Notes under the pieces: generated by a model
Databases searched by the model: none
Seen by the model: the letters and a program-made list of their open reading frames with translations, nothing else
What the model was told of the DNA's origin: nothing
Program-made: the position numbers and the translations under genes
DNA from: an uncultured virus (IMG/VR IMGVR_UViG_3300007542_004333)
Taxonomy: Duplodnaviria > Heunggongvirae > Uroviricota > Caudoviricetes
DNA length: 64,000 nucleotides
Virus record (IMG/VR): IMGVR_UViG_3300007542_004333
Strand: one strand, 5' to 3'
Shown here: positions 3,654 through 63,385 of the stretch, one piece after another
Layout of the letters: every line of letters begins with the position of its first letter
How positions within the stretch are numbered: position 1 is the first letter of the stretch

Positions 3654-3664
3654 GGAATAAAAAA

Positions 3665-5791: not shown

Positions 5792-5803
5792 GGAGAAAAC
5801 AAT

Positions 5804-7103: not shown

Positions 7104-7113
7104 GAGGTATTTT

Positions 7114-7902: not shown

Positions 7903-7927
7903 ACTGATTTGTGGAGTACAATATTGT

Positions 7928-11860: not shown

Positions 11861-12191
11861 AATTATTTTATCAGCGATTTTGTTGGTTTCTCTTGTATTT
11901 AATGTTGGCATGCTTATTTATGCTCGTTCAGCGATTATAAGATTATTATCTATCTCTGAAGAGCTTGGCGATCTACAAAGCATGGTAGAATCGTTTGCGG
12001 CACACGTACAGTCAATTTACGAATTAGAAATGTATTATGGCGATAATACTTTGAAGTTTTTATTAGATCATGCCTCGTCTTTTAGCGAGCAGTTAACAAC
12101 TTTTGAATATATCTATTCTTTAACTGCCGAAGAAGAGCAAACGCAGTTAAAGGAAACAATAGATGAAGAACAGGCAACGCAGGTCGAGTAG
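11847..12191 (+). CDS. Hypothetical membrane-anchored protein
   Basis: N-terminal hydrophobic helix followed by a helical domain. Confidence 0.55.
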   Translation: MSRLEIILSAILLVSLVFNVGMLIYARSAIIRLLSISEELGDLQSMVESFAAHVQSIYELEMYYGDNTLKFLLDHASSFSEQLTTFEYIYSLTAEEEQTQLKETIDEEQATQVE

Positions 12192-21873: not shown

Positions 21874-22251
21874 ATGTCTGGATTAGCTCCTAGTTTGCCA
21901 CTTATTAGAAATTCTGCTGATGGCTTTGCCAACATTAAGAACTTCAATCAACTTATAAAACAAAATTTAAAAATGTTGCTTCTTACAAACCCAGGTGAAA
22001 GAGTAATGGATCCTAATTATGGCGTGGGAATGAGACAGTTTTTATTTGAAAACTTCGATCAAACTGTTTATGCAAGAATCGATAGTAAAATAAGAGAACA
22101 AGCTTCCGTTTACATGAGAGGTTTGACCATAAATGATATTGGTTTTAATACAGTTAATATCGATCAAGGTCAACTTGGAATTAGAATTAGTTATAGTTAT
22201 ACTGGCTTGAACATACGTAATATTTTAGAATTTACGATTTCTGGTTTATAG
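21874..22251 (+). CDS. Baseplate wedge protein, gp25/GPW-like
   Basis: IKQNLKMLLLTNPGERVMDPNYGVGMRQFLFE signature. Confidence 0.9.
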   Translation: MSGLAPSLPLIRNSADGFANIKNFNQLIKQNLKMLLLTNPGERVMDPNYGVGMRQFLFENFDQTVYARIDSKIREQASVYMRGLTINDIGFNTVNIDQGQLGIRISYSYTGLNIRNILEFTISGL

Positions 22252-22263
22252 AGAGGACTTTAA

Positions 22264-28500: not shown

Positions 28501-31500
28501 CTTGTTAATGCAATGAGGCTTCTTGAGCCAGAAACAGCTATTTCTTCTAATATGATCAAAGTTCTTTCTGATTCACAAAATTTATTTGGTGTCAGCGAGG
28601 TTAGACCAAAGTATTTCCACACGATTGAAAAAAGCATGTACTCTGCGGTATCTCAAGAAATGCTTGATTTCTTTGCTGGTGTTGTTGATTTTCATAATGT
28701 TATTGGCGAGCCAGTTCAGCGTTATCGCGGTCGCTACAAGAAACTTGAGAAACTAAGAGAAAACTTCTTTAGAAAAGTCTCAACTGTTTCTAACGTTGAA
28801 AAGTTTATTGAGTATTATAAATGGATAGACGATGCGTTGGCTTCTGTTGTCGCACAATTGTTACCGGCATCTTCGCCAGTTGTTGAAGATGCTTACAATA
28901 TCATTGAAAGCCACGTTTTAGAAAGAAACAAATATAAAACTCCGCTACCAATTATCAAAGAAACTGTTCCAGAACCAAAGTTCCCTATTCTTGGTATCAA
29001 TAAGTTACTTTATAACTGGAAAATTAATCATGCTCCTATCGGTGGTTCGCAAGATCAAAATACTCTTTGGTGGAAAGAAAGAGCACAACGCGATGTTAAT
29101 ACCACAATAACATCTGGCGATACAACCGTAAATGCTCAAAGAGAAACAATTCGTGAAACAATAGATATTGCAAACGATCAATCTGCTCCAACTTTAAGTA
29201 CAAATGGGGCGGTTGAGTATCAAGGTTCTGTTGATGTTTTACGAACTCGCGCAAAGCCTTACAAACTAACAATGGCAACTCGTCATGTTGTGAAGGGCGG
29301 AACAAACTTTAATAACAATAAAGATCTTGGCTTAACCTACGCCGCTCTTTATCCAGCAGGACCAGTCAATACAGATGGTGGGGTTTTTGTTCCAACAAAC
29401 GTTCTTCTTGCAAAAGCAGAGGACATTGGCGCGCTACCAGAAAACAGCGAAACTGGATCTGCTCCAAGTGTCAAAATCAAAAGAAACTTTAAAGTTCAAT
29501 ATGGTAGACAATGGGAAGATGGTCTTGGTTATTACAACTTAAAGTCTTCTAGAATATTCCCATTCAATGTTGTTAAATCTGATGTTACTACTGGATACAA
29601 CAAACAAGTTGTCGAGAAAGTTACTGGAAACGTTGAGATTGTTAACTTGCACAACGACGTTTACGGCTCTGACATGGAACGACCAATGCAAGGTCCGTTC
29701 ACAGATTATGCAGTTGGTGGTCACCAGTCCCGACACGTTAAAATAAATCAAGGCTCTGACGATTATACTAATCGCCCAGAAGCTTGGAAATTATTACTTG
29801 GCACTCTAAACGATCCTTCTTGCCGCTCAACTGCTGATTTTACTGGCGCGATTGGTATGGTTGGTGCAGATTATCCATATCCAGAAGCAAATGAAGTTGG
29901 TGAAACTCCTTACCCAATGACAGCTTCTCAAAAAGCAGTTTATTACAGAGATTTTACGGCAAAGCGTCCTGTTAATATTCGCAATATTAATACAACAACA
30001 GGCTCCACTATTCTTGGAAACTACTATAAAAACTATGAAGTTGTTAGTAGCGTTGGTGGATATGCCAATCCAAGAGCATTTGTTGATAATCCTCCAACTT
30101 TACCAGTTGAAATAACTCAAACACCTTCGGCTTCGCAGGCTCGATCTATCCTTGATATTCGCAGAACAGATGAGTCTCATACTGAATTTGTTCCTGATTA
30201 TGCTGTGAACTATTTGCACAGCAACGCTAATAATAAAAGCATTATTCGCAGTAGATTCTCTTCTCCTGGTGGTATTGAATCAATCGGTCAAGGCTATGGC
30301 GACATAAGAGCAAATGAATATTCTGCTTACAATGCTATCAACTACCGCAATTTAACTGTTCGTAGACCGTTCCAAAATATATCTGGAACTGTTTCCGAAA
30401 CTGTTGGTGCAGGTACAACAGGCATCAGAGTTTCCGACATTAATAGTCAAGACTTTGGTTTAATCAAAAATCTTGCTACTCATGCTGGTAGATTCGGTAG
30501 GCACCCAGATTTAGTCACCAACCCTGGTGCGTCTTATTCCCAAGCACCAACATTAAATAAAATGAACCGCAATACTTTGCGTGTTATCAAACAAGATTCT
30601 TCTGGTGCTTTTATTTCTTCATCTCAGTTTGATAATTTCTTTGTTCAACATCAGATTCCAAGAGCAGATAGACAATACGCTTGGATTACTGCTTCGCTCG
30701 CCTCTCAGGCGCATAACGGAGACATTAGATACTATGGCTATGCTCCAACATCTGGACCTCAAACTGGCTACTATCAATACAGTAGCAGCAGCGGTTTACG
30801 TTATGAAGCTTATTTCCCGTTTGTATCTGCTTCAGATGTTCTTGGTGCGTCAGGCACAGCCTCACTTTACCAGCCAACATTAGATCTCAACATTTACATT
30901 GCTGAACCAGTTGATTCTGCAAGCAACAATGTTATGGGCTATGGCACTGGCACGCCTTCACAAAATTATTATAATACAGATTTAATCGATACAATTCCTG
31001 GCTTGTTGTCAGACTTAAATGGCAATGCAGACTTTGTTAACTTAACTTTCTCAAAGCGTAAATACAACTTTGGTTATCGACGCACGCCTTATACTGGTCC
31101 TGCTTCCCACCCTGTTTTAAGAAAGCATGCCAGAGAAAATACTTTAACGATTTATGATGGTGCTTCTATTTCTAGATACTCAACCAAGCCATTCAGTAGC
31201 CGTAACGCACCAGTTTATATTAACATGGATGCTAATGGAAGCAATATAACACTAAAAACAACTTATAATAATGAAAATCTATATTTCAGCGATAAAGATT
31301 TAAATCAAAAAGTCTTCGCTGGAAAGATTCAAAATAAAACGTTGTTGTTCGATCAGTTGCTTCAACTTCCACAAAATAACCCAAATGCTTATACTTTAAA
31401 TTGGGTTATGTATTCTGAAGCGCTTTTCCCGACTAGAAAGTTAGAACTAACCACAGCTTCTTCAACAAGAGTTGGGTACGACAACCTATACTGGCGAGCG

Positions 31501-34500
31501 ACACAGCAAGAAAGAATAGACTTACATACTTCTTCAGTTCAAACAAATTCGTATGGCGTTTTGGTGACTCAATCTGCTTGGGTACTTGACGCTCCTTCTG
31601 ACTTTTTGACGAGAACATTAAGCGGAATATCGTCTATTCCAACTGATGGAATATTTGATGCTTTAATTTCTTCTAACTCTGCCGGTGAGTTGCAAAATGA
31701 GTATCTACACGCCCACTACACAACAGCGTCTTTAAACACACAAACAAAGATCAGAAACAGGGCAATAAGCGCCCTTTATTCAAGAAAGCATCTTCTTGGT
31801 GCCCCAGGTTCTGTTGTTTCACCTTCTGGCATTCCAATCCCAGAAACAGGATCTATTGTCAAGGGTAGCGTTTCTGCTCAGTTTAATAACTATGATCGTT
31901 TTGCTGGTGAAGCTTTCTGGGATGCTCCAGCAAATGCGGGCATTATACAAAAGAGCGGTTCAACAAATGAGTTTGTTTCTTATCCTTCTGAACCGTGGTT
32001 TGATGATTATGATTCTTATAAAGAAGAACTTTCTTTGGTCAGCAAAGGTTACGCTGTTGTTCCAGAGTTTAGATTAAGCGAACACATTTCTGATTATAGA
32101 AAATTTGGACTTGGCAGAACAAAAGATACTTTTGAGGTCGTTGGAACTGGCATTGATAGTTCTCAAACAAACTTTTATAATGATTATTCAAATGCCGAGT
32201 TTATGGAAGGATTTGCTAACATTTCTAACAAGACAGGCTTGGCACCAAAAGAAATTAGATTAGCTTGTAGCGCGTCGATTAGACTAATGCCTTACAAGGG
32301 TTTTTATCCTGCACAAAGAAGCGCTGATCTTGTTGAGCAGTTTAAAAATTCTTATGGAAAATCAATCCAAGCTTTCAACAATAGTGCAAATATTGCCAAT
32401 GGCACAGACGGCGGTGTTAGACCATTGGTCCAGCCTTTGTTCGCCCCAGGCATTCTTTACAACACCATTAAATCTGGTATGGCTGTTGATTACCCTATCG
32501 GCTCAACTTTAACCAAACTTTCCAAAAATCATTTTGGAACTGTTAGTAGCACAGACGATACTGCACAGTGGATGTTAACAACTATTACTGGCTCTGGACC
32601 AACAGATTATCAAGGTGGCTCTGTTTGGCAGAAACGAATCCCATTTGAAGCTATTATTCGACCAGAAAAACATATTGCTGGTTTGACTTTCCTTGATATG
32701 GAACCTCACCCATCTGCATCGCTAGATGCAACGGCTTCGTTTACTGTAAACGAGATTGATGATCTTTACACCAGAATGGCTTCTAACTACTTTGGTGAAA
32801 TGGCTAACTTTTTCTTGAAGGATTCTCAATACACAAGATTGCAATCTGATGTTGTTTCAAATGATTTAAGATTTGAATCTGGGAGCATTTACGGTGCAAG
32901 ACTAAAACTAAGAAGGTCTGTTAGCGGTAGTAGAATTTATACGAGCGAATCTGGCGCGGCAGGCAACAACTCTGCGTACAGCACTTACGGTGCGAGATTC
33001 TATGACTCAGGTGCCAACACATTTGTTAATAGAAGAACATATCCACTACCACAGGATCCAAGACAGCTTTCTGCCGATGAATTCCAAGAGTCGTTCACTC
33101 TTTACAGTCGTCCAAGCGCTTTCGGTCCTCCGATAGCAGGTAGACCAGATTTAGGAGAAGCTTCTGGATCTTATATTACAGCATCTCACCCAATAGATTC
33201 GCTAAACGGATTTAACTGGTCCTATACGCCCCCTTATTACAACGGTGAAGCTTGGCTTGATATTGTTTTCGAGCCAAATGCTGGCGAATCTTACGATCTT
33301 GAAAAGATTCTTTCAGAAGCAAAAACAAAGTATTGGAGATGTGATCCAGGTCCATCAGCTTCTTCTGTCCCAAGTGGACCAAACATCACTAACTGGACAG
33401 GTACGCAGTTGATTGGAACCCTTAGCGGAAACATAGCTTTCTCTGGTAGCTCTGCAACATACGGTGATTTAATTTACGACGGCAAAAACGTTAATGCTAA
33501 CGCGATGCAATTAAGCGCAAGTATTGCATCATTTGGCGTTGAAAGAATCCAGAAAGTTAGAACCGATAACTTTGGCAACGAAGTACTATCTGAAGACGAG
33601 TATGTTGGCTCGCGTTGGGTTATCCAGCCAAAAATGGAAACTCCAATGCCTAACTTCAACAACAAAGGTGTTAGACCAATTACAGATGCAAATTCAACTT
33701 TCTCGGTTCCAACTTATGCATCTCATTCGGCTCCACGAGGCATTTGGCATCAGTTTGGTGTGGTGGAACCAGATGAGACAAAAGGAATCTTCTTAGAAAT
33801 TGGCGATATTCCTTCTGATTGGCTACGCGGGCATTATGACGTTATTGACAACAACAGTATCTACAATAAAAATGATGCTGCTGGAAACGGAAACAATATG
33901 TTCCAGACAATGAAGCCGCTTACTGACGTTATAAACTTTACAGAAGAAAATGTTTCAGTTAAGCTTGGTCAGTTAGCTGAAAGCAAAACAATTAAAGAAG
34001 CTATTGTTGCAGTTCCTTACCAAGAAGAATCTAGTGGCGCAACAAAAACATTCTTTGAGATTGATCAAGCAAGAATCGAAGCTAGCTTGCAAAGCGCAAT
34101 AGGATCGTCAGAGGGAGACTCCCTTGATTACGCGGGCGAGTCCATCAGAAGACAAGTTGAAGCAATGCAACAATACATTCTACCACCTCAATTTGATTTC
34201 TTAAATAATCCAGATGCAGATCCAATGGTAATGTATTACTTTGAGTTTGAATACAAGTTTGATAAAGATGATTTAAATTACATTTGGCAGAACTTGGCAC
34301 CAAGAAACTATAAGAAGATAACAAAAACAGTTTCTTCTACTGCTCATACTCTTGGTGACAATGAATTACTAACTGCTGACGATATAAATAATTCAAACAC
34401 TCGATGGATGGTTTTTAAAGTAAAACAAAGAAGCCAAGCAAAATATGCAGATTTAATACCATCTCAGGCTGGCTCCTCTACTCCGTCTTCTCAGACAAAC

Positions 34501-34650
34501 GCAGCTAAAAATGAAACTCAGAAAAACAAAGATGATTTGTCAAAAGACACTTACAAGTTAGAGTACAATTGGCCTTATGACTATGTATCTTTTGTAGAGA
34601 CAATTAAAATCAGCGCTGATGTACTGTATAAAGAAGATGATCAAGGATAG
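25567..34650 (+). CDS. Giant (3027 aa) baseplate/tail protein with LamG-like domain
   Basis: TVEFWLK...HYAFV...LYVDG...GSLDEFRFW (LamG/ConA-like) and IYKAKGTEKAIR (wedge/tail-protein-like). Confidence 0.7.
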   Translation: MSIKKLFDSSNKTRNYLSKTDQKEAFESVESDRNLRALSTKQQEFIPQIDYSEPENFSRYGSAYLYYDSAIKQVHDYYPYDGSDAEITEYYNKLLDIEKYIFNNLYPRTNGLANFSADGWGSLSSTADGYGLPATLEYISFDGGPNKTSFTKLSEAFPTDKNSKFQFSNIYDDDLYTTAGLPSDYGVGTRESNLKSNFDNGVTVEFWLKKDAFSTSLTEKEVVLDIWNNNLSSSADYGRLTIELTGSSSGSPFLITAQAGTSGIYQQSIGASLTTASLGSYAHYAFVFYNSGTNLITKLYVDGVLNDENTTAGALSELNSKNMQGRIGALITSPSGSTASAGAGKLSGSLDEFRFWNATRSARDIARYWKSQVRGGANTDVSNTTLGLYYKFNEGIVGNTTTDSSVLDYSGRIGNGTWTGYGSNSRSTSSAMVLSTNATSEYLDPIIYSDHPDVASLKTDLLNKGSFHDRNNNSMFVNMMPSWVIEEAEEDTSDLRMVSHIVGAYLDKLTLQIQSIPSLKFLQHTSASAKPVPFAQHLPQSLGLYMPEIFVDSTVMEKFLNRSDDQFMESDLNDAKNLIYLNLYNSLAGIYKAKGTEKAIRNAFRCFNFDDRVIKFKTYSDREIYDLESNLQINLEPNSQVNFNDNNNLAGVVYQKADPTNAESLDYISGSYSTDKEARYGFTLEVKTTFPAFERIDETVNRNYTDVSLFGMALANTASASDTTWASTDPVNFQVYAIRDKQWSKGVYFKLTSSISPNPFPELTSSFFLGTYDNDDWSFAVRLKPSNYPYADLVSGSSGYTYDLEFSGINSVNGTIENTFTLTGSLSKTTGQDFLKSAKRIYAGARRTNITGAIDTRSDVLISNVKYWTKYLEDSDLQHHAFDLNNGGISGSYKNLSALDSNLKQVDVKNANSLALHWTFSNITGSDSSGNFYYVTDNSSGSSEIRDNYGWIGAIGGYQHTGYGYGFATSSTDVVKNNLVNAMRLLEPETAISSNMIKVLSDSQNLFGVSEVRPKYFHTIEKSMYSAVSQEMLDFFAGVVDFHNVIGEPVQRYRGRYKKLEKLRENFFRKVSTVSNVEKFIEYYKWIDDALASVVAQLLPASSPVVEDAYNIIESHVLERNKYKTPLPIIKETVPEPKFPILGINKLLYNWKINHAPIGGSQDQNTLWWKERAQRDVNTTITSGDTTVNAQRETIRETIDIANDQSAPTLSTNGAVEYQGSVDVLRTRAKPYKLTMATRHVVKGGTNFNNNKDLGLTYAALYPAGPVNTDGGVFVPTNVLLAKAEDIGALPENSETGSAPSVKIKRNFKVQYGRQWEDGLGYYNLKSSRIFPFNVVKSDVTTGYNKQVVEKVTGNVEIVNLHNDVYGSDMERPMQGPFTDYAVGGHQSRHVKINQGSDDYTNRPEAWKLLLGTLNDPSCRSTADFTGAIGMVGADYPYPEANEVGETPYPMTASQKAVYYRDFTAKRPVNIRNINTTTGSTILGNYYKNYEVVSSVGGYANPRAFVDNPPTLPVEITQTPSASQARSILDIRRTDESHTEFVPDYAVNYLHSNANNKSIIRSRFSSPGGIESIGQGYGDIRANEYSAYNAINYRNLTVRRPFQNISGTVSETVGAGTTGIRVSDINSQDFGLIKNLATHAGRFGRHPDLVTNPGASYSQAPTLNKMNRNTLRVIKQDSSGAFISSSQFDNFFVQHQIPRADRQYAWITASLASQAHNGDIRYYGYAPTSGPQTGYYQYSSSSGLRYEAYFPFVSASDVLGASGTASLYQPTLDLNIYIAEPVDSASNNVMGYGTGTPSQNYYNTDLIDTIPGLLSDLNGNADFVNLTFSKRKYNFGYRRTPYTGPASHPVLRKHARENTLTIYDGASISRYSTKPFSSRNAPVYINMDANGSNITLKTTYNNENLYFSDKDLNQKVFAGKIQNKTLLFDQLLQLPQNNPNAYTLNWVMYSEALFPTRKLELTTASSTRVGYDNLYWRATQQERIDLHTSSVQTNSYGVLVTQSAWVLDAPSDFLTRTLSGISSIPTDGIFDALISSNSAGELQNEYLHAHYTTASLNTQTKIRNRAISALYSRKHLLGAPGSVVSPSGIPIPETGSIVKGSVSAQFNNYDRFAGEAFWDAPANAGIIQKSGSTNEFVSYPSEPWFDDYDSYKEELSLVSKGYAVVPEFRLSEHISDYRKFGLGRTKDTFEVVGTGIDSSQTNFYNDYSNAEFMEGFANISNKTGLAPKEIRLACSASIRLMPYKGFYPAQRSADLVEQFKNSYGKSIQAFNNSANIANGTDGGVRPLVQPLFAPGILYNTIKSGMAVDYPIGSTLTKLSKNHFGTVSSTDDTAQWMLTTITGSGPTDYQGGSVWQKRIPFEAIIRPEKHIAGLTFLDMEPHPSASLDATASFTVNEIDDLYTRMASNYFGEMANFFLKDSQYTRLQSDVVSNDLRFESGSIYGARLKLRRSVSGSRIYTSESGAAGNNSAYSTYGARFYDSGANTFVNRRTYPLPQDPRQLSADEFQESFTLYSRPSAFGPPIAGRPDLGEASGSYITASHPIDSLNGFNWSYTPPYYNGEAWLDIVFEPNAGESYDLEKILSEAKTKYWRCDPGPSASSVPSGPNITNWTGTQLIGTLSGNIAFSGSSATYGDLIYDGKNVNANAMQLSASIASFGVERIQKVRTDNFGNEVLSEDEYVGSRWVIQPKMETPMPNFNNKGVRPITDANSTFSVPTYASHSAPRGIWHQFGVVEPDETKGIFLEIGDIPSDWLRGHYDVIDNNSIYNKNDAAGNGNNMFQTMKPLTDVINFTEENVSVKLGQLAESKTIKEAIVAVPYQEESSGATKTFFEIDQARIEASLQSAIGSSEGDSLDYAGESIRRQVEAMQQYILPPQFDFLNNPDADPMVMYYFEFEYKFDKDDLNYIWQNLAPRNYKKITKTVSSTAHTLGDNELLTADDINNSNTRWMVFKVKQRSQAKYADLIPSQAGSSTPSSQTNAAKNETQKNKDDLSKDTYKLEYNWPYDYVSFVETIKISADVLYKEDDQG

Positions 34651-46013: not shown

Positions 46014-46451
46014 ATGGAAATAGTTCTTTTTGCTCTTGGCATCTTGTATGCTAACACATTTGAGTATGCAGTTCATCGTTATTTATTTCACGAATTTGGC
46101 AAAAAGAAAGATTCATTATTTTCATTTCACTTGCGAGAGCACCACTTGACTGCAAGACATAACGATTTTTTTGATTCTAAAATATCAAAAGTCGAAATGA
46201 TTGGTATACCATTTATTTTGCTTGCTCATCTGCCAATTGCTTTTTTCAGTCCTTTCTTTTATTCTGCTCTTGTTACTTACGGTGTTTTATTTATTTTAAT
46301 TCACAACTTTGTCCATAGATATCCAGCAGTAGCTAAAAAAGTTTTTTGGTGGCACTGGAATCACCACATGAGAAACCAAAATAAAAGTTGGGGGGTTGTC
46401 TTACCAATAATGGATTTACTGTCTGGAACTTTGCAAAAGAGGGTTGATTAA
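46014..46451 (+). CDS. Fatty acid hydroxylase / sterol desaturase superfamily membrane protein
   Basis: His boxes EYAVHRYLFH, HLREHH, HNFVH and HWNHH, then SWGV...MDLLSGT. Confidence 0.75.
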   Translation: MEIVLFALGILYANTFEYAVHRYLFHEFGKKKDSLFSFHLREHHLTARHNDFFDSKISKVEMIGIPFILLAHLPIAFFSPFFYSALVTYGVLFILIHNFVHRYPAVAKKVFWWHWNHHMRNQNKSWGVVLPIMDLLSGTLQKRVD

Positions 46452-47425: not shown

Positions 47426-47956
47426 ATGAAATTACTATTTGAAAATTGGCGCAAGTTTTTAAAAGAAGCTGCCGATCCATACGCACAACAAGTTTATAAA
47501 CTAATAACAAATGATGATCCAGATACTGTAGAGCAAGGATACGAACTTGCGCCTTTAGCCATTGAAGACATTTACGCCGAAGCAGAAAATCTTGCCGTTA
47601 AAGACTTAAAGCGATCTTTTTTTGAATTGTTGACCACAGATGAAGACCCTGATTGGGGAAATGTATTTCGTGATGAAACGCCTGAAAAAATAAAACAAAT
47701 AAAAGAACTTCGCAAAAAAGCATCAGAAATACAAACAAAAGAAGATATAGAAAGTTTTATTCCTGCATATTTATCGCTTATTGAATCGCTCTCGGCGCCC
47801 ATGAACGGTTCTTTTGTTCACCCAGATGGTACAAACGAGGATGACACATATCCTCTAAAAGATTTTTTTGATCCAACTATCAACACTTTTGAAAATGTAT
47901 GGGTTCGGTATTACTTAAAAAAACTTATAGAAGATAAATATTTGCAAGGAGCATGA
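47426..47956 (+). CDS. Hypothetical protein with MKLLFENWRKFLKE leader (candidate internal head protein)
   Basis: Leader resembles those of the ORFs at 61579 and 63378. Confidence 0.6.
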   Translation: MKLLFENWRKFLKEAADPYAQQVYKLITNDDPDTVEQGYELAPLAIEDIYAEAENLAVKDLKRSFFELLTTDEDPDWGNVFRDETPEKIKQIKELRKKASEIQTKEDIESFIPAYLSLIESLSAPMNGSFVHPDGTNEDDTYPLKDFFDPTINTFENVWVRYYLKKLIEDKYLQGA

Positions 47957-49176
47957 AAATGTTAATAACAAAAACAAGATTAAAACAAATTATTAAAGAA
48001 GAAGTGAATGCTTTTTTGAAAGAACAAAACGGCTCTTTTTCTTCGGAAATCAACACATTATCTCCCAAAGAAACTGCTGAATTTTTAAGATTAGCTTCTC
48101 CACCGAAAGTTCTTCAAGTTCCAGATAAAGAACAAGTAGTTGAAGTGCATGGAATGGGTGATCCATCAGGTGGTCCATCATCCGATCCATCATCTAAAAT
48201 TGCAGATGAACTTGTGGACTTTTTAAATACACTTTCCGAATCAGAGCAACCAGATGTTAACATGGTCAAAAGATTTTTTTCCAAACTCGCTGATCGTATC
48301 GACTCTGAAGAAACTGGTGAGTCAAAAGAAAATCTTGCGAGAGCAACGATACAAAAAATCAAAGACAGAATCGGAAGAGAAACAAGAGGTACAAAAGCAA
48401 TTATAGCTGGGTTGCTGGCGTCAGCATTATCTCAAGGTACTGATATTTTTAATCACATAAACGTTATTGCCGATGATCCAGAAAGTGCAATAGAAATGAT
48501 GGCAACTGATTCGAAGCCGCGTATGACGTTTGCAGTTTCTGATGGACCACCTGACCTTTCACAAGTCCAAGCCTACGATTTCTATGGAAATATAAATGCT
48601 GAAGCTTTTGACGACTTAACAAATGATGAAACTGTAGAAGTTCTATGGAATCATATTGATCAATTAGTTGACTCTGGTCGGTTAAATTACAGAAGAGCGC
48701 ATGTCACTACACAAGCTCCAGGCGGCATTGCATATATAGATTACGATCAAATACCAGATAACCTTGTTATGCCAAATTCTTTTGACACTAAAGAGCAGTA
48801 TAAGGAGTGGGTTATTGAAAATATTTTGAAAAATGATGTCAAAAATATTTCAGATCTAAGAGATTTTGTATTCGGAGATACTGGAAAATGGCCATCTAAT
48901 AGCGGCGATATTGAAATGCGCTATGCTGACCTTCCTGGGGGCGATGAAGATCTTCAAGCACAAGTAATTGCTCTAGAATGGTCAGTTGCATACAATTTAT
49001 ATCAAGAAATTGTTGAAGATGGTATAAATAAAGTTGTGTCCGATTATCAAAGACAGCCAGAAGCAACACTAATAGCTAATGGTGTTGAAAGCGAAGAACA
49101 GCTGCTTAAAATTTTGAATAAAATCCTTTACGGAGCAGGAATTCAAAAGATAGACTCCTTGACATCGCCTCAATAA
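47953..49176 (+). CDS. Hypothetical acidic protein with ITKTRLKQIIKEE leader (candidate internal head protein)
   Basis: Leader shared with the ORFs at 53084, 53923 and 62359. Confidence 0.6.
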   Translation: MKMLITKTRLKQIIKEEVNAFLKEQNGSFSSEINTLSPKETAEFLRLASPPKVLQVPDKEQVVEVHGMGDPSGGPSSDPSSKIADELVDFLNTLSESEQPDVNMVKRFFSKLADRIDSEETGESKENLARATIQKIKDRIGRETRGTKAIIAGLLASALSQGTDIFNHINVIADDPESAIEMMATDSKPRMTFAVSDGPPDLSQVQAYDFYGNINAEAFDDLTNDETVEVLWNHIDQLVDSGRLNYRRAHVTTQAPGGIAYIDYDQIPDNLVMPNSFDTKEQYKEWVIENILKNDVKNISDLRDFVFGDTGKWPSNSGDIEMRYADLPGGDEDLQAQVIALEWSVAYNLYQEIVEDGINKVVSDYQRQPEATLIANGVESEEQLLKILNKILYGAGIQKIDSLTSPQ

Positions 49177-49204: not shown

Positions 49205-49468
49205 ATGAAAAGTCTTCTTTTTGATAGAGTGTTTTATTTTGCTGTTGTTGTTATCTCTTTTTTCATGGGACATGCGGCTGCTGGATTAGTTTTTGATATT
49301 GTATACGAGCGTTCGCGTATTGAAAGCGTTAAGCCAAATGTTATTTCGGTCCCTCTACAGGATATAGAAGAAGAAACATATGATGCTTATGTAGAGATGC
49401 TGGTTGAAAACAATGCTGACTATTTAAACCAGAAGCTTATCGGAGATAATGTCCAGGGTGCTGAATGA
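49205..49468 (+). CDS. Hypothetical membrane protein
   Basis: One hydrophobic helix; strong SD. Confidence 0.55.
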   Translation: MKSLLFDRVFYFAVVVISFFMGHAAAGLVFDIVYERSRIESVKPNVISVPLQDIEEETYDAYVEMLVENNADYLNQKLIGDNVQGAE

Positions 49469-52400
49469 AGATCGCTCATATTGCTGATACTCATATTAAA
49501 AATTTAAAATACCATCAAGAATACAAAGAAATATTTGAACAAATTTACGATTCTCTTAGAGAAAATAAAGTAGATTATATTGTTCACTGTGGAGATATCG
49601 CACATACTAAAACTCAAATTTCTCCTGAGTTTGTTGATATGTGCTCTGATTTTTTTCGCAATCTTTCTTTAATTGCGCCAACTTATATTATTCTTGGTAA
49701 CCACGATGGCAATCTTAAGAACAGTAACCGCCAAGATGCGATTACTCCAATCGTTGAGGCATTAAATCTTCCTCATCTTCATTTGCTTAAAAACTCCGGT
49801 GAAGTACATTTAAATAATGATTTATGTTTAAATGTACTTTCTGTTTTTGATAGAGATAATTGGACGCAACCAACAGATTCATCAAAAATCAACATAGCGC
49901 TTTATCATGGCTCTATCAGCGGTTGTAAAACCGATGCTGATTGGGAAATGGTAAACGGCGAAGACGATATATCTATTTTTAACGATTTTGATTTTGCTAT
50001 GCTTGGCGACATTCATCGTTGTCAGGCGCTGGATAAAACAAAACGAGTTTGGTATGCTGGCTCTACCGTTCAGCAAAATCACGGAGAGAGCAACGATAAA
50101 GGCTTGTTGCTTTGGAACATAAAATCTAAAAATGATTGGAATGTTGATCATATTGTTTTTAATAATCCAAAGCCATTTTTTACTATTACGCTAACTCCAA
50201 CTGGCAAGATACCAAGAAAAACAAGCGTCCCAAGTGGCGCTCGTTTGCGTTTGGTAAGTGAAAATAATTTGCCTCTCGACGTTATGCGTAAAGCGCTTGA
50301 TGTTGCAAAACATAAATACAAGCCTGAAAGTGTTACTTTTCTCAACCGTGCTGCTGGTTCTCGTGGTTCCGTTGAAGAAATTGCTGGAGATTTGTATTGC
50401 GAGAACCTACGCGACATAAACGTACAAGAAGAACTTATTTCAGAGTACCTTAAGGATTATCAGATCGATGAAGATACTCTTGAGTCTATTTACGAACTAA
50501 ATCGTAAGTATAATAAAATTGTAGAAGACAACGAAGAGGTTTCAAGAAATGTCAACTGGAAAATCAACAACTTTAAATGGGACAATCTTTTTAATTATGG
50601 AGAAGATAACAACATTAATTTTGACAGTCTCTCTGGGATTATCGGAATTTTTGGCAAGAACTTTAGTGGCAAAAGTTCTGTTATTGACGCAGCGCTTTAT
50701 ACACTTTTCAACACGACTTCGAAAAATGAGCGCAAGAATTTAAATGTTATTAATCAAAATAGAGACTATGGGCGCGGAGAACTAGAGATTGAGATCGGAG
50801 ATAAAGTTTATTATATTACCAGACAATCTGTTAAGTACACTCGTCGCGTTAAGAAAGAAGAAATAACAGAAGCAAAGACTGAGCTAAACTTTGAAGAGCA
50901 CGACAAGACCACAGGAGAAACTACCTCTCTCAACGGCACCACGCGGGCTCAAACCGACGCAAATATTCGCAAGCACTTTGGCACCATAGAAGATTTTTCT
51001 ATGTCTTCTCTTGCCTCTCAGCACGGCGCATTTTCTTTTGTCGATGAAGGTTCAACAAAGCGCAAAGAGATTATTGCAAAGTTTTTGGATCTTGAGTTTT
51101 TTGATCAAAAGTTCAAATTAGCAAAAGAAGATTCGCGTGATACAAAAGTTCTTCTTAACAAATGCTCTGATAGAGATTTTGATGTTGAGATTTCTGAAAC
51201 AGAAGAAAGGTTAGCTAAGGCAAAGCAAGACTCTGAGGTAAATCAATCAAAGTGCGAAGAGTTGAAAATTAAAATTTCTGTTCTTAACGAAAAGTTGAAC
51301 AATTTAAAAAATCAAATAGCATCTGCTCCAACAGATTTTATCGATGTTGCCCAACTTGTCAATAAGCAAAATGAAACAAAATACCTTTTGTCTTGCGTAA
51401 ATGAAAAGATTACAGAAGCGTCAAGTGCTATTGGACTTAAAGAAGAAAAGCTAGCCAAAGCAAATGCTTTAGTTTCGATGATCGACATTAGCTCGATCCA
51501 CGTCGAAAAAGAAGAAGCAAATAAATTAAAAGATAAAATAAATTCTTTAATGAGTGATTTGCAAGATATCGATAAAAAGAAAAAACTATTAAACAGCATA
51601 CCTTGTGGTAATTCTTTTCCTACTTGTAGATTTATTAAAGATGCTCACGTTGCTGTTGCGTCTTCTGGTTCTGTTGAATCTGAATTACAACAAACAAACT
51701 TAAGATTTGCAAACTACGATCTTGGTACAATTAACAAACGAATTGAACAATACGAAAATATTGTAAATCTTACTCGTAGTTTGCAGGCTGAGATTTCTAC
51801 AGCCAAGTTAGAAAGAGAGCGCAACAAAACAAGTGTAGCTAGATTTGAAAGTGAGTTGATAGAAATCGAAAAGCGAATTTCTTATTATGAAGAAAACAAA
51901 GAAGTAATCGAAAATCTTCAGCGACTAATCCAAGACAAATCAAAAATTGAAAAAGATTTATCAAATGAAAAAAACAAGCTTTCAAGATGCGAGCGAGATA
52001 CTTTGCAACTTTATAAACAAGTTGGTTCTTGTGAAGAAGCGCTTAAAAACATTATAAAAGACAAAGAATCTTATTTGCGCTTGCAACGTGAGTTCACGGC
52101 TTACGATTTGTTTATGCGCTGTATGCATACTAACGGAATCTCGTATGACATTATTAAAAATAAAATTCCTGTTATTAATGAAGAGATCGCAAAGATTCTA
52201 GCAAATATTGTGGACTTTGAAATTTTCTTTGATAGTTCTGGAAATAAATTTGATATTTTCATTAAACACCCCGCTTACGACGAAAGACCTATTGAAATGG
52301 CTTCTGGTGCAGAAAAAACAATGGCAGCGATAGCAATAAGATTATCGCTACTTAGTGTGTCTTCTTTGCCTAAAGCAGATCTGTTTATACTTGATGAACC

Positions 52401-52572
52401 AGGAACAGCGCTAGATGCTGAAAATATGGATGGGTTTATTCGGATTTTAGAACTAATTAAAGTGTATTTTAAAAACGTTTTGTTGATCTCGCATCTTGAT
52501 TCTTTGAAGGATTGTGTTGATATGCAGATCGTTATTGACAAAGAAGCCGACTTTGCAAAAATAAAACAATAG
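49465..52572 (+). CDS. Fused Mre11/SbcD nuclease - Rad50/SbcC ATPase (gp47-gp46-like)
   Basis: HIADTH, GD, GNHD, GDIH metallophosphoesterase motifs, then Walker A GKNFSGKS, coiled coils, ASGAE signature, FILDEP Walker B and ISH switch. Confidence 0.92.
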   Translation: MKIAHIADTHIKNLKYHQEYKEIFEQIYDSLRENKVDYIVHCGDIAHTKTQISPEFVDMCSDFFRNLSLIAPTYIILGNHDGNLKNSNRQDAITPIVEALNLPHLHLLKNSGEVHLNNDLCLNVLSVFDRDNWTQPTDSSKINIALYHGSISGCKTDADWEMVNGEDDISIFNDFDFAMLGDIHRCQALDKTKRVWYAGSTVQQNHGESNDKGLLLWNIKSKNDWNVDHIVFNNPKPFFTITLTPTGKIPRKTSVPSGARLRLVSENNLPLDVMRKALDVAKHKYKPESVTFLNRAAGSRGSVEEIAGDLYCENLRDINVQEELISEYLKDYQIDEDTLESIYELNRKYNKIVEDNEEVSRNVNWKINNFKWDNLFNYGEDNNINFDSLSGIIGIFGKNFSGKSSVIDAALYTLFNTTSKNERKNLNVINQNRDYGRGELEIEIGDKVYYITRQSVKYTRRVKKEEITEAKTELNFEEHDKTTGETTSLNGTTRAQTDANIRKHFGTIEDFSMSSLASQHGAFSFVDEGSTKRKEIIAKFLDLEFFDQKFKLAKEDSRDTKVLLNKCSDRDFDVEISETEERLAKAKQDSEVNQSKCEELKIKISVLNEKLNNLKNQIASAPTDFIDVAQLVNKQNETKYLLSCVNEKITEASSAIGLKEEKLAKANALVSMIDISSIHVEKEEANKLKDKINSLMSDLQDIDKKKKLLNSIPCGNSFPTCRFIKDAHVAVASSGSVESELQQTNLRFANYDLGTINKRIEQYENIVNLTRSLQAEISTAKLERERNKTSVARFESELIEIEKRISYYEENKEVIENLQRLIQDKSKIEKDLSNEKNKLSRCERDTLQLYKQVGSCEEALKNIIKDKESYLRLQREFTAYDLFMRCMHTNGISYDIIKNKIPVINEEIAKILANIVDFEIFFDSSGNKFDIFIKHPAYDERPIEMASGAEKTMAAIAIRLSLLSVSSLPKADLFILDEPGTALDAENMDGFIRILELIKVYFKNVLLISHLDSLKDCVDMQIVIDKEADFAKIKQ

Positions 52573-52583
52573 GAGCAATTTTT

Positions 52584-52856
52584 ATGGCTACAGTTACAAA
52601 AGATGATATATGGAAAGTTTTTTCATTAATCATGTCTATTTTGGTAGTTCCGTTAGCGGGATGGGTTTGGACGATGAATGTAAAGGTGGCTGAACTTCAT
52701 AACGATCTTGGGGACGCAGAAAGAACAATAGAATCTTTGGAAACCAAAATACGCGAATCTGAAGATAACGCCAAACAAATTATCTCAATAGAAAAAGATA
52801 TTGAGTATATGAAAGGTGCTCTTAACCGAATTGAAAATCTAATATCGGGTAGCTAA
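52584..52856 (+). CDS. Small membrane-anchored coiled-coil protein
   Basis: One transmembrane helix then a heptad pattern; SD GGAG. Confidence 0.55.
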   Translation: MATVTKDDIWKVFSLIMSILVVPLAGWVWTMNVKVAELHNDLGDAERTIESLETKIRESEDNAKQIISIEKDIEYMKGALNRIENLISGS

Positions 52857-52860
52857 TGTT

Positions 52861-53103
52861 ATGTTGTATTTTTTACTTTGTTTGACTTCATACACCGAAG
52901 ATAATATGCAACAAGTTATGGATTCTGTCTCTGCATTAGAGCAGTTTTTGTTAGATCAAAAAAACCATGAAAAATACTGCCCACAGATCATTTGGGAACA
53001 ACCAGACATTGAAGATTATAAGCAAGATTTAAAATCACATTTACCGCAAGAATGTCCTGCTCCAGAAGAGGAAAAAACACCAAATGAAAATAACCAAAAC
53101 TAA
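52861..53103 (+). CDS. Hypothetical protein
   Basis: 80-aa ORF filling the gap; short hydrophobic N-terminus. Confidence 0.45.
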   Translation: MLYFLLCLTSYTEDNMQQVMDSVSALEQFLLDQKNHEKYCPQIIWEQPDIEDYKQDLKSHLPQECPAPEEEKTPNENNQN

Positions 53104-53926
53104 GTTAAAGCAAGTAATCAAAGAAGAAGTTGTTAAGTTTTTAACAGAAAATGAAGATCAACAATATGCTAGAAAGATTTTAGAGTTTTTAGATCATGAA
53201 GATCCTTGGCAGTTTGCACAAGGAGTAGTGCTTTATTCTACGCTCAAAGACGATATTGAAACTAACGCTCCAACAGAAAATGATCAGATCTTAGCAAAGC
53301 TAAAAGTGATTGATCGGTTTGCAAGGTCAAAAATACAAGACGTTGATTTCTTGTCTGGCTTAAGTGAACTAAATATTACAGAACAAATAGACCTCCGCTT
53401 TTGCAAGAAGCTGCAGAACGTAAACGGATTAGAGGGACTCACGAACCTGACGACCCTCGACCTCGAAAGGTGCACGTCGCTGGAGAACGTAGACGTGCTG
53501 AAGTCCCTACCGAACCTGACGACCCTCGACGCTTACTGGTGTAAGTCGCTGCAGAATGTAGACGGGCTCCAGGGTCTTACAAACCTGACGACCCTCAACC
53601 TCGAAATGTGCTCGTCGCTGCAGAACGTAGACGGGCTAAAGGAATGCACGAACCTGACGACCCTCTACCTCTACAGTTGCCGGTCGCTGCAGAACGTAGA
53701 CGGGTTGGAGGGGCTTACGAGCCTGACGAAACTCTATCTCAGCGATTGCAGGTCGCTGGAGAACGTAGACGTGCTGGAGGGCTGCACGAACCTGACGACC
53801 CTCGACCTCGAATTTTGCTGGTTGCTGCCACCAGAATTACGACGACTGTTTCAATCTAATAGCAGCGGTACAGCACACGAGAAGTTTATGGAAGCTTTAA
53901 ACGAATCCAAAGGAATCCGACCATGA
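53084..53926 (+). CDS. Leucine-rich-repeat protein with MKITKTKLKQVIKEE leader
   Basis: Six full 23-aa repeats plus one partial, consensus xLxxCxSLxNVDxLxxLTNLTTL. Confidence 0.9.
   Translation: MKITKTKLKQVIKEEVVKFLTENEDQQYARKILEFLDHEDPWQFAQGVVLYSTLKDDIETNAPTENDQILAKLKVIDRFARSKIQDVDFLSGLSELNITEQIDLRFCKKLQNVNGLEGLTNLTTLDLERCTSLENVDVLKSLPNLTTLDAYWCKSLQNVDGLQGLTNLTTLNLEMCSSLQNVDGLKECTNLTTLYLYSCRSLQNVDGLEGLTSLTKLYLSDCRSLENVDVLEGCTNLTTLDLEFCWLLPPELRRLFQSNSSGTAHEKFMEALNESKGIRP
53390..53827 (+). repeat. GC-rich 69-bp degenerate tandem repeat (about 6.3 copies) encoding LRRs
   Basis: Units start at 53390, 53459, 53528, 53597, 53666, 53735 and 53804. AACCTGACGACCCTC is exact in 5 of the 6 full units. 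Confidence 0.92.
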
Positions 53927-54156
53927 AAATTAATAAATCAACTTTAAAACAAATAATCGCAGAAGAGCTTGATAGGCTTATGGCAGAAAAAGAAAAAAAG
54001 AAAGATTGCTTTGAGAAAGGTCTTTATAAAACATTTGCAGGTAAATCAAAGTGTATTCAAACAACTAAAGGTTTAAGCAAGGAAAGAGCAGATGCTTATG
54101 TTGCAAGTGTTTTACGCGACATGGGTGAAATAAAAGAGGTGAAAGATGATGAGTGA
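53923..54156 (+). CDS. Small protein with MKINKSTLKQIIAEE leader
   Basis: Shared leader followed by a basic region with two Cys. Confidence 0.6.
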   Translation: MKINKSTLKQIIAEELDRLMAEKEKKKDCFEKGLYKTFAGKSKCIQTTKGLSKERADAYVASVLRDMGEIKEVKDDE

Positions 54157-54349
54157 AGAAAGAAAAGAAGCTTTATTAGACAGGGGATTAGAAAAACTAA
54201 CATCACGTAAACTGTTGGTTTGGGTCGCTGCCACTGCACTTATGGCTTTTGGTAGTTTAGAATCAGCAGATTGGGTTGTTATCTCCGGTCTTTATCTCGG
54301 TGGTCAATCTGTAATTGATGCTATTGTTAAATTAAAAGGATTAGAGTAG
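54146..54349 (+). CDS. Small two-TM protein, holin-like
   Basis: KLTSRKLLVW..., two hydrophobic helices, YLGGQSVID. Confidence 0.5.
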   Translation: MMSEERKEALLDRGLEKLTSRKLLVWVAATALMAFGSLESADWVVISGLYLGGQSVIDAIVKLKGLE

Positions 54350-54350
54350 C

Positions 54351-54737
54351 TTGCTGGTGCAACAAAAAATATTATCATTCTGCCTAAAGCACTGGAAGGA
54401 GATTGGACTTGTCCTTCTCCTTCTTGTTGTGTTTGGTAAATCGCGGTATGATATGCATAACATAACTAAAACTCATGACGTTATAGAACAGTCGCTACAA
54501 AATCAAATAACAACTCTTCAAGATTTGCATACTGAAGAGTTGCGACTGCGCGATGAAGCTCTTGAACGTTATCGTATTGAAGTAGAGGAGTTGGTTTTAA
54601 AGTACGAAGCACGTCAAGCTGAGATAAAAGATTTCACAAAAACAGAAAAAGAAACTATAATAAAAGAGTTCAAGCAAGACAAAGAGTTAATCATAAAACG
54701 CTTTGAGCAAACATACGGATTAGAATATGTTGAATAG
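54351..54737 (+). CDS. Membrane-anchored coiled-coil protein (i-spanin-like topology)
   Basis: N-terminal TM (IGLVLLLLVVFG) then a long coiled coil; start codon uncertain. Confidence 0.45.
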   Translation: MLVQQKILSFCLKHWKEIGLVLLLLVVFGKSRYDMHNITKTHDVIEQSLQNQITTLQDLHTEELRLRDEALERYRIEVEELVLKYEARQAEIKDFTKTEKETIIKEFKQDKELIIKRFEQTYGLEYVE

Positions 54738-62037: not shown

Positions 62038-62378
62038 TAGAACTAATATTATTCGCCTTAATCGCCTACGGACTAACGCAGATTTTAGTTTATAGCGACA
62101 TGCCTTTGTTAAAAAGATTGCGACCAGAAAAGCAATCATATAAAGGTTATGGAAAAGTATTTCATTGTCCTATGTGCATGGGTTTTCACGTTGGATGGAT
62201 TTTAATGTTGCTTTCTCCAATGACGCAACTATTTAATTTTGAAGTTAGTTTAGTAAACGCACTTTTACTTGGCTCACTTTCCTCTGGAACATCTTATGCT
62301 CTTAGCATGGTATTTGGTGATCAAGGAATTCAAATAGCGCAAAACATGAGGATTGGAAATGAAGATCACGAAGAGTAG
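62034..62378 (+). CDS. DUF1360-like membrane protein
   Basis: Hydrophobic helices flanking CPMCMGFHVG. Confidence 0.55.
   Translation: MIELILFALIAYGLTQILVYSDMPLLKRLRPEKQSYKGYGKVFHCPMCMGFHVGWILMLLSPMTQLFNFEVSLVNALLLGSLSSGTSYALSMVFGDQGIQIAQNMRIGNEDHEE
62228..62237 (+). promoter_or_regulatory. Candidate late-promoter motif ACTATTTAAT
   Basis: Identical to the 42183 motif; about 120 nt upstream of leader-bearing ORF 62359. Confidence 0.35.
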
Positions 62379-62664
62379 ATTAAAAGAAATTATTCTTGAA
62401 GAGTTGGCAAACGATCAAACTGCTGATCCTACAAAGCTAGCTACTCAAACCGCCAGTGCTTCTCAAAGAAGAAAAGATGCTTTATCTAGAATTTCTGACA
62501 CTGAAAAAGAATTAACTGGTCAAGAGACTGGACTTATTAATCAAATTGAAAAATATATCTCCGATTTAGCATCAAGGCCAGGGATTGATTTGTCCCAGCA
62601 CAAAACTATGCTAGAAAGAATTCTTAAAATGTTAGAGCAAAATATTGGTTCTAAAGCCAAATAA
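62359..62664 (+). CDS. Hypothetical protein with MKITKSRLKEIILEE leader
   Basis: Shared leader; ATG 62359 after GAGG. Confidence 0.6.
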   Translation: MKITKSRLKEIILEELANDQTADPTKLATQTASASQRRKDALSRISDTEKELTGQETGLINQIEKYISDLASRPGIDLSQHKTMLERILKMLEQNIGSKAK

Positions 62665-62779: not shown

Positions 62780-63385
62780 ATGAGTCAGAAATTATTAAGA
62801 GAATTTTATGCTCTTTGCGAGAGCGGAATATGCAAAGACCTTCTTACTGAAGAAGAAAAGCGATTTGTTGCTAATGGTGGTATGATCCTTAGTGGCAAAC
62901 TACAAGAAGCAGATGTCCGCAATGGTAACGGTCGAGTTTACCCTTATCGTGTTCTCCAAAGAGAAATGAAGAACTACCAAAAACTTGTAAAAGAAAATAG
63001 AGCTTTAGGTGAATTAGACCACCCAGAAGATTCAGTTATTAATTTAAAGAACGCTTCTCACATGATTACAGAAGTCTGGTGGGATGGCAAAGCTGTTATG
63101 GGTAAAGCAAAAATTTTAGAAACTCCTTCTGGTAAAATTCTACGTTCTCTTGTGGAGTCTGGCGTTACTCTTGGTATTTCTTCAAGAGGCATGGGTTCAG
63201 TTAGAGAATCAAATGGTCAAACTATGGTTGAAGACGACTTCCAACTTATTTGTTTTGACTTTGTTTCTGAGCCTTCTACCCCTGGCGCTTTTATGATGAA
63301 AGAAGCCAAAGAACATAACATCAACGTATTTACAAAAGCAGATAAAATCAATCGCTTAATTAATCAGGTATTAGAAGATGAGTAG
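62780..63385 (+). CDS. Prohead core protease (T4 gp21-like)
   Basis: NGNGRVYP, ALGELDHP, ETPSG, LGISSRGMGS and FDFVSEPSTPGA. Confidence 0.93.
   Translation: MSQKLLREFYALCESGICKDLLTEEEKRFVANGGMILSGKLQEADVRNGNGRVYPYRVLQREMKNYQKLVKENRALGELDHPEDSVINLKNASHMITEVWWDGKAVMGKAKILETPSGKILRSLVESGVTLGISSRGMGSVRESNGQTMVEDDFQLICFDFVSEPSTPGAFMMKEAKEHNINVFTKADKINRLINQVLEDE

Follow-up and report, generated by a model that had tools for sequence, protein, structure and literature searches.

Here, we focus on one gene in a stretch of 64,000 nucleotides from an uncultured virus of the Caudoviricetes (IMG/VR record IMGVR_UViG_3300007542_004333); the whole of this stretch is termed the window. The window is DNA of a large T4-like phage, and its list of open reading frames (ORFs) places nearly all genes on the + strand. 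The gene at 53084–53926 encodes a protein in which a short charged leader and a helical domain precede a GC-rich block of leucine-rich repeat (LRR) units and a C-terminal tail (table 1). It is almost certainly one of at least 11 paralogs that form a multigene family of this phage, in which the repeat units present a hypervariable face and exchange sequence by gene conversion.

Architecture and composition of the gene

By profile and by structural model, the 280-residue protein is an LRR solenoid composed of tandem LxxLxLxx(N/C)xL units. Pfam LRR_4 matches five stretches of the protein (E 7.5e-20; 70.9 bits against a cut-off of 27), and LRR_EndoS, LRR_5 and other Pfam models likewise score above their cut-offs. 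The AlphaFold2 (AF2) model has a mean predicted local distance difference test (pLDDT) value of 89.8 and a predicted template modelling (pTM) score of 0.84, and it places one strand in every unit of 23 residues (7/7), at unit positions 6–8. Comparison of the fold using Foldseek returns 352 PDB chains at E <= 0.001, the best of which are internalin A and B, a Roco LRR and SDS22. In the DNA, Tandem Repeats Finder reports a period of 69 with 5.8 copies and 73% matches at 53410–53812, as well as a period of 138 at 79%. The SLP..L motif of unit 7 and the C-terminal cap is conserved in relatives, and the last codons of the tail include a ribosome-binding-like AAGGAA for the next leader gene.

Table 1. 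Coordinates of the LRR gene and its parts, of other leader-bearing genes and of two further landmarks in the window.
Feature	Position	Strand	Basis or remark
Leader and LRR gene, 280 aa	53084–53926	+	ORF list; Pfam LRR_4; AF2 model
Leader of 15 codons, MKITKTKLKQVIKEE, ending I-K-E-E; candidate capsid-targeting sequence and prohead-protease propeptide	53084–53128	+	ORFs sharing the leader
AT-rich linker and helical N-terminal cap domain, residues 16–95	53129–53368	+	AF2 helices 24–36, 41–61, 63–74, 88–95
LRR unit 1 (cap unit), residues 96–118	53369–53437	+	Strand 101–103; composition step
LRR units 2–6, 69 bp each, residues 119–233	53438–53782	+	Strands 124–126, 147–149, 170–172, 193–195, 216–218
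LRR unit 7 and C-terminal cap, residues 234–256	53783–53851	+	Strand 239–241
AT-rich C-terminal tail helix, conserved	53852–53923	+	AF2 helix at residues 264–277; 17 aligned relatives
GC-rich repeat block of the preliminary description	53390–53827	+	GC windows; G+C per unit
Gene-conversion tract	53622–53704	+	L004 version identical, over 83 nt, to G002 12161–12243, in a unit of paralog 'e'
Second polymorphic patch, unit 6 positions 10, 11 and 13	53742–53751	+	S>N, D>G, R>E in L004
Leader protein of 407 aa (leader after MKML)	47953–49176	+	No Pfam or PHROG family
Leader gene of 77 aa, overlapping the LRR stop codon (ATGA)	53923–54156	+	ORF list
Small leader ORF, leader Met at 62359, 116 bp upstream of the prohead protease gene	62353–62664	+	
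T4 gp21-type prohead (head maturation) protease	62780–63385	+	phrog_207, E 1.7e-56
Baseplate genes	21874–25577		

The repeat units are a compositionally foreign, GC-rich module joined to native, AT-rich ends. A preliminary description of this block, made from the sequence alone, had drawn attention to its composition and codon usage, and its figures agree with ours. GC content is 0.55–0.575 in 200-nt windows over 53400–53799, against 0.295–0.38 in windows that lie wholly in the flanks, with the step at approximately 53390, inside unit 1; units 1–7 contain 37, 41, 38, 38, 40, 41 and 32 G+C per 69 bp, the value for unit 2 being exactly that given earlier. Codon usage was compared between 60 units from the 11 paralogs and 23,834 background codons of the same phage. 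The G+C content of third codon positions (GC3) is 0.83 in the units and 0.27 in the background; CTG supplies 44% of leucine codons against 3%, and CTC 41% against 3%, so that the two together account for 85% of leucine codons compared with 6% elsewhere. The same skew is found in ACG (77% against 9%) and TCG (50% against 7%). Framework codons are close to fixed even at silent sites: among 47 units, CTG is found in 45/47, CTC in 45/47, AAC in 46/47 and GTA in 43/47, as the near-invariance reported earlier had implied. Across the 11 LRR genes the units have an overall GC content of 0.585, while the remaining parts of the same genes (0.369) are close to the rest of the phage (0.358). All 40 distinct LRR ORFs from metagenome loci share this structure, with a unit GC content of 0.54–0.60 and a median N-domain value of 0.33. 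Since the GC-rich module is common to the 11 paralogs and to all 40 of these ORFs, its capture preceded expansion of the family, and the earlier suggestion that the cassette was recently acquired does not stand.

The searches for a cellular donor were negative within their respective scopes. The unit framework pattern gave 0 nucleotide matches in 185,579 species genomes, and among viral contigs it matched only the contig G002, which derives from the same phage (see below). Peptide patterns of the leader and N-domain gave 262 candidate stretches in the donor search, none of them confirmed, and a protein atlas search for a donor returned generic LRR clusters only. Among named cellular LRR proteins, the nearest relatives come from metagenome-assembled genomes of Chthoniobacter (Verrucomicrobiota); they are approximately 50% identical over the repeats and start with a hydrophobic N-terminal stretch. 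In further relatives that share only the LRRs, the repeats are joined to BRCT or WGR-type domains. Nothing points to the host as the donor, which the preliminary description had raised. No tRNA suited to the foreign codons is found in the window, and G002 has tRNA-Ala(TGC) and tRNA-Pro(TGG) only. The persistence of a GC3 of 0.83 within genes whose other parts, like the genome, sit near 0.27 is an evolutionary puzzle. Silent divergence between units (pS, the proportion of synonymous differences, 0.25) lies modestly under that between paralog N-domains (0.34–0.44), which suggests, but does not prove, concerted evolution of the units. The GC-rich units also contain open frames in other frames or in antisense, at window positions 53401–53544 and 53608–53859 (+2 frame), for example an 83-aa 'HEPDDPRP' repeat. 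Long alternative-frame ORFs of this kind are present in every paralog, and probably arise because GC-rich repeats are poor in stop codons.

A paralog family with a hypervariable face

Positions 29570–50848 of G002 match window positions 1–21279 at 99.97% identity and thus represent the same phage. G002 reaches 29.6 kb upstream of the window, and locus L018 joins further upstream; L015, L018 and L020 lie on one metagenome contig of 161,402 bp. Taken together, L018, G002 and the window cover approximately 99 kb, in which one strand carries 16 leader ORFs, 11 with LRRs and 5 without. The 11 LRR paralogs are all complete ORFs of 239–389 aa with leader and tail, and most are found in a tandem array with ATGA overlaps. 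Their common layout consists of a helical cap, 3–9 units of 23 residues and a C-terminal cap. The window gene is a solitary copy, located 68–89 kb downstream of the 10 other LRR paralogs.

A protein search gave 388 matches, of which the top fifty or so are full-length relatives at 40–66% identity that share the leader, one of two N-domain types, 1–9 units and the tail; the leader is visible in 34/40 of the distinct metagenome LRR ORFs. GenBank phages (50,697 records) gave no match by blastn of 52500–54500, by tblastn of the protein or by tblastn of a 22-aa leader query, in searches where the low-complexity filter may hide repeats. No account of a phage LRR multigene family was found in those parts of the literature that were accessible.

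Variation within the units is confined to a few sites. Only unit positions 6, 8, 10, 11 and 13 have an amino-acid entropy above 2 bits (47 units); they correspond to positions 3, 5, 7, 8 and 10 of LxxLxLxxCxxL. The strands of LRR solenoids line the concave face, and in the AF2 model positions 10, 11 and 13 sit in the loop adjoining the strand at 6–8; in the model, the hypervariable residues thus lie on and just after the concave-face strand, where the preliminary description had placed them. The strings that it listed for xLxxCx in the window gene (DLRFCK, DLERCT, DAYWCK, NLEMCS, YLYSCR, YLSDCR and DLEFCW) are read as stated, with NNG always following Cys and NAY always as the first codon. The proportion of nonsynonymous differences (pN) is 0.54 in the variable codons, with a pS of 0.27, and 0.065 in the framework codons, with a pS of 0.25, a contrast that is partly circular given that the variable sites were picked by amino-acid entropy. 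A check that does not depend on how the sites were picked is provided by the bases themselves: within variable codons, similarity is higher at third bases (0.655) than at the first two (0.435). Many of these codons fit NNC or NNG. The combination of five residues is unique in 59/60 units, and the residues used are mainly S, D, T, E, Y, N, G, R, K and W.

Differences between strains fall on the same sites. Contig L004 is 99.3% identical to the window from 53512 onward, and the two differ at 20 sites in 2489 bp, of which 19/20 lie within 53638–53751. Those in the conversion tract fall at 53638–53685, and there the L004 version reproduces a unit of paralog 'e' exactly. Across the 55 pairs of paralogs in the reference genome, the longest exact match has a median length of 29 nt and does not exceed 46 nt; set against this maximum, the 83-nt donor match points to short-tract gene conversion from a sister gene ~76 kb upstream. 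The donor cassette that the preliminary description had proposed to look for is thus present in the same genome. In the second patch, 5 nt are changed in 3 codons; the best paralog match to the unit is 90%, and no donor was found. Six near-identical contigs (at least 99.4% identity) contain 23 differences in 1,523 nt of variable codons and 41 in 32,687 nt elsewhere (odds ratio 12.2, Fisher p 2e-15), the 23 reducing to ~7 independent events, in clustered tracts, once shared variants are taken into account. In a second check independent of how the sites were picked, 15/15 of the changed variable codons are nonsynonymous, while 11/12 of the changed framework codons are synonymous. In a wider set of 20 alignments at 96% identity or above, differences per kb amount to 23.3 in variable codons, 12.0 at intermediate positions, 5.9 in framework codons and 4.8 in other genes. 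Among the near-identical strains, the changes in variable codons alter amino acids and occur in short multi-nucleotide tracts; strain changes involve all four bases. The preliminary description had proposed a recombining, diversifying and homogenised binder; diversification and exchange are borne out by the 83-nt tract and the strain data, and homogenisation goes no further than the suggestion noted above.

Exchange also involves whole genes. At the syntenic locus L022/L023 the flanking genes are 93–95% identical, yet a different LRR gene of 355 aa with 8 units is present, followed by other leader genes; like L004, these related strains carry arrays that differ from that of the window. In L006, an inserted leader-tagged GNAT gene (positions 76–630; Pfam Acetyltransf_1, E 7e-6) separates the LRR tail from the 77-aa gene, and a related leader-tagged GNAT gene directly follows the LRR gene in L022 (3057–3548); the window has no GNAT gene, and the leader-tagged GNAT looks like a strain-variable cargo cassette. 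Strains L006 and L022 have other leader-tagged genes ahead of the 77-aa gene or in its place. The junction of C-tail and leader (~100 nt) is conserved at the DNA level, which would provide the homology required for whole-gene swaps, and comparison of these loci indicates that whole leader-tagged genes are swapped between strains at this junction.

The gene is recovered in public data. Zero-difference contigs from four public runs of four studies (X4, X5, X10 and X13) cross the GC boundaries: over the 5′ boundary they cover 52900–53635 in X4 and X5, 52972–53630 in X13 and 53177–53464 in X10, and over the 3′ boundary they run from 53780 in X10 and X5. A further zero-difference piece, in X4, covers 53636–53802. 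Locus L015 is 100% identical to the window over 6840 bp and spans the boundaries. Some part of the stretch is present in 19 public runs, which come from 13 studies labelled freshwater, aquatic, marine or oyster; in 15 runs, half or more of its sampled words are present. Breaks in Logan contigs at ~53635 and ~53780 were considered as a sign of population polymorphism, and this idea was dropped: the window shares exact repeats of 46 nt (53614–53659) and 37 nt (53773–53809) with paralogs, at which short-word assemblies would break anyway. Nor were the additional depth and the 'other letters' seen across the array used as evidence, as paralogs are mixed in. Separately, in one metagenome contig (L044 840–2291) the N-domain of the window gene passes, after approximately residue 90, into unrelated AT-rich DNA encoding a 451-aa P-loop helicase-like ORF on the opposite strand; this join is either a real rearrangement that removed the LRR block or an assembly chimera.

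The shared leader and the fate of the proteins

The leader, with the consensus MKITKxKLKQIIKEE, is found on four ORFs in the window. It has a pN of 0.068 and a pS of 0.438, and this low ratio indicates selection on the peptide rather than on the DNA. In the 15 leaders that start MKI, residues 12–14 read I-K-E, I-A-E or I-L-E; in the ORF at 47953 the motif is offset by two residues. The leader is modelled as a low-confidence helix (residues 5–16) followed by a disordered and often very acidic linker. When the other leader proteins were compared with Pfam and PHROG, the only match was the GNAT of the L006 insert. One of them, a 246-aa protein encoded inside the LRR array at L018 3975–4715, contains an HELHH string resembling a metalloprotease motif; it falls in no Pfam family, and its only PHROG match is marginal (E 0.0056) and of unknown function. 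Related leaders, of an MKKSxL..II.E-like form, are also found in a cultured relative, Flavobacterium phage immuto (MW353177.1, L055), at 3272, 3858, 14166 and 24333; at least 4 of the 27 ORFs inspected carry one, among them a 73-aa ORF between the portal and prohead protease genes. No virion proteomics of immuto was found in the accessible parts of the literature.

A precedent for such a peptide exists in phage T4. The protease gp21 of T4 cuts after L/I-X-E, and a capsid-targeting sequence (CTS) of 10 residues suffices to load proteins into the head, according to the sections consulted of PMC9026906. The internal proteins of T-even phages are described, in the part of PMC3012670 available, as a diverse anti-restriction set whose only common feature is the CTS. 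By analogy, the leader ending in I-x-E would act like the CTS of T4 and dock the protein to the prohead core; the gp21-type protease, encoded by the same phage, would remove the leader in the head; the mature LRR binder would be ejected together with the DNA; and the repertoire of concave faces would bind and block variable host proteins, most plausibly defence factors, in the manner of the T4 internal protein IPI. This T4-like route of loading, cutting and injection is the best reading that we can offer, and we regard packaging and injection as evenly poised between right and wrong. Both packaging and an anti-defence role draw on the T4-like leader for their support, and that host defences are the target is a more tentative proposal. 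The leader may be CTS-like in function at best, and by Pfam and PHROG it is not a homologous member of an internal-protein family.

Several observations weigh against this account and the diversification that it builds upon. I-x-E is a very short motif, and its agreement with the protease site is a match of sequence only. Against Pfam and PHROG, the leader matches no curated family and the leader proteins match no internal-protein family, and the leader is carried by the 407-aa protein and by other cargo of no assigned role. The stretch is absent from any run on record as RNA. As to diversification, the L004 variant is present in one contig only; the strain contigs were assembled from short metagenomic reads and represent a repeat family, in which paralog chimeras are possible; and the same variants recur in L020, L021 and L035, and again in L032 and L034, which is why the events are fewer than the differences. 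To the partial circularity of the pN contrast must be added the rate of 19.2 differences per kb in the non-unit parts of LRR genes, in the 20 alignments, which implies that N-domains are exchanged among paralogs too. A complex prediction for the protease with residues 1–45 scored 0.00 and carries no weight either way. Taken as a whole, this explanation stands in the balance, ahead of the others as the best available.

Two of these others assign the LRR proteins a different fate. They could be ordinary intracellular phage proteins that are not packaged, with leader and tail serving mainly as a gene-junction element (ribosome-binding site, start codon and recombination homology) kept for the duplication and swapping of cassettes. 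The junction is indeed conserved in DNA, with AAGGAA ahead of each ATG and ATGA overlaps, cassettes are swapped exactly at C-tail/leader junctions, and packaging of the LRR proteins is inferred from the leader sequence. However, the leader peptide is kept on the genes at 47953 and 62359, which have no LRR tail before them and different upstream DNA; its substitution pattern speaks against a junction element; a related peptide is found in immuto in a different DNA context; and the leader ends in the motif of a protease that the phage itself encodes. We consider this alternative rather unlikely, though it is the strongest of the four. Alternatively, the proteins could be host-recognition or adhesion modules on the exterior of the virion, diversifying after variable receptors, a role that would suit both their hypervariable binding face and their fold, which among solved structures is closest to that of LRR adhesins such as internalins. 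Yet the LRR protein lacks a signal peptide and matches no family of tail-fibre or baseplate attachment domains, the LRR genes are located apart from the baseplate genes, and the same leader is found on a GNAT acetyltransferase and other non-adhesin proteins, all of which makes an exterior role improbable.

The remaining two concern the origin of the variation and of the block itself. A diversity-generating retroelement, or other templated hypermutation, could write the variable codons; many of these codons fit NNC/NNG, multi-nucleotide changes occur inside single codons, and the searched sequence covers part of the genome. The reverse transcriptase and template repeat that the preliminary description had suggested looking for were not found in G001, G002 or the window: RVT_1 (PF00078) had a match in neither G001 nor G002 (0/2) at E <= 1, in a search whose control was positive in 4/14 control genomes, and no reverse-transcriptase family was detected among 54 window ORFs scanned against PHROGs. 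Framework adenines are constant (as the AAC and GTA counts show), strain changes hit all four bases and are not adenine-specific, one variant tract is an exact paralog copy, and the fold is an LRR. The usual target of such elements has a lectin-like fold. This origin is very improbable. That the GC-rich block is an assembly chimera of phage DNA with that of another organism would explain the sharp compositional step and the breaks of several public contigs within the array. The preliminary description had counted an assembly with no reads across the GC boundaries as a refutation of its reading; these boundaries are crossed by the zero-difference contigs of four studies and by L004 and L015; moreover, the reading frame is continuous through both boundaries and the same architecture is present in all 40 related ORFs, leaving a chimera a negligible prospect.

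Known systems and genomic setting

By analogy, the system may be said to combine features of the T4 CTS and internal proteins with those of a paralog-driven LRR diversification locus. In common with the T4 internal proteins (IPI, IPII, IPIII and Alt), a short N-terminal peptide ending in L/I-x-E is found on unrelated proteins, in a phage with a gp21-type protease, and the tagged genes are polymorphic and strain-variable (PMC3012670, PMC9026906, as far as the accessible sections go). The T4 CTS has 10 residues; the leader described here has 15, of different sequence. The cargo here, known from genes alone, is an 11-paralog LRR family with unit shuffling, which is not described for T4 in those same sections (PMC3012670, PMC9026906).

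A close parallel for the repeat genes is an LRR locus of Flavobacterium psychrophilum (Altae-Tran et al. 2020, PMC10392669), of which the portion consulted describes tandem genes with 2–14 repeats of ~22 residues, a few hypervariable positions on one face, strain differences and signs of recombination. That locus is bacterial, its proteins are secreted to the surface via a signal peptide and a type 9 secretion signal, and it is littered with broken gene fragments (same source and portion); the phage genes, in contrast, are intact, with a charged leader and units of foreign composition. The variable lymphocyte receptors (VLRs) of lampreys and hagfish share the LRR solenoid, a diversified concave face and a mode of diversification by which LRR cassettes at other genomic sites are copied in. 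Germline VLR genes lack part of their sequence, which somatic assembly supplies from silent cassettes, whereas every phage paralog is complete and exchange is seen only as between-strain differences; copying of units between loci, of the VLR type, is represented by the 83-nt donor match in one strain contig. Listeria internalins (InlA and InlB) and the Roco and SDS22 proteins similarly have a helical cap followed by short repeats (2omw_A, E 5.5e-10; TM-scores by query 0.4–0.55), but identity is 21–29%, their repeats have 22 residues with an Asn ladder rather than 23 with Cys, and their biological setting is different. Diversity-generating retroelements, likewise, focus variation on ligand-binding residues of a phage protein; in the window and the two searched records there is neither reverse transcriptase nor template repeat, and the donor is a paralogous unit.

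The window also holds baseplate wedge genes, a fused SbcD–SbcC nuclease, a large terminase, a portal and the gp21-type prohead protease. The nearest cultured terminase is that of Flavobacterium phage immuto, at 48.7% identity. The nuclease (49465–52572) has SbcD-like and SbcC-like halves in one 1035-aa ORF (phrog_100, phrog_77), and the public record G001 stops within this gene, at window position 51908. A fatty acid hydroxylase family protein (PF04116, E 3.9e-10) is encoded at 46014–46451. Neither the 407-aa leader protein at 47953–49176 nor its neighbours gave a Pfam match to tubulin-like proteins. Genes for sugar-nucleotide or glycan metabolism at 277–10735 include a GtrB-like protein, a nucleotide-sugar epimerase, a dTDP-4-dehydrorhamnose epimerase-like protein, an aminotransferase and a heptose adenylyltransferase-like protein; this cluster may modify DNA or a surface glycan. 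Two giant ORFs without a PHROG match, at 15281–21829 (2182 aa) and 25567–34650 (3027 aa), flank the baseplate-wedge genes and are probably fibre or baseplate giants. A T4 late-promoter-like octamer is not enriched in the window (9 matches against 7.46 expected).

Counter-defence in phages usually relies on single proteins, each a dedicated inhibitor. This virus appears instead to possess a library of generic binders that shuffles itself, built on a scaffold employed in immune recognition by vertebrates and plants. The most far-reaching version of the proposal is that the phage has its own repertoire of capsid-delivered, antibody-like binders whose units are re-assorted by paralog conversion and which neutralize fast-changing host defence, a viral counterpart of the VLR principle; we hold this to be doubtful as yet, but, if true, the retained foreign GC-rich codons would be the mark of conversion by a dedicated or biased process. 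Should the leader be a genuine address tag for the capsid, for which immuto is a possible experimental model, these genes would be a naturally occurring case of programmable protein cargo carried in phage heads. They would then also offer binder design a set of compact LRR scaffolds of 23 residues in which only five positions per unit set specificity, and provide a handle on the host proteins disarmed by uncultured estuarine and freshwater phages, of interest to phage–host biologists and protein engineers.

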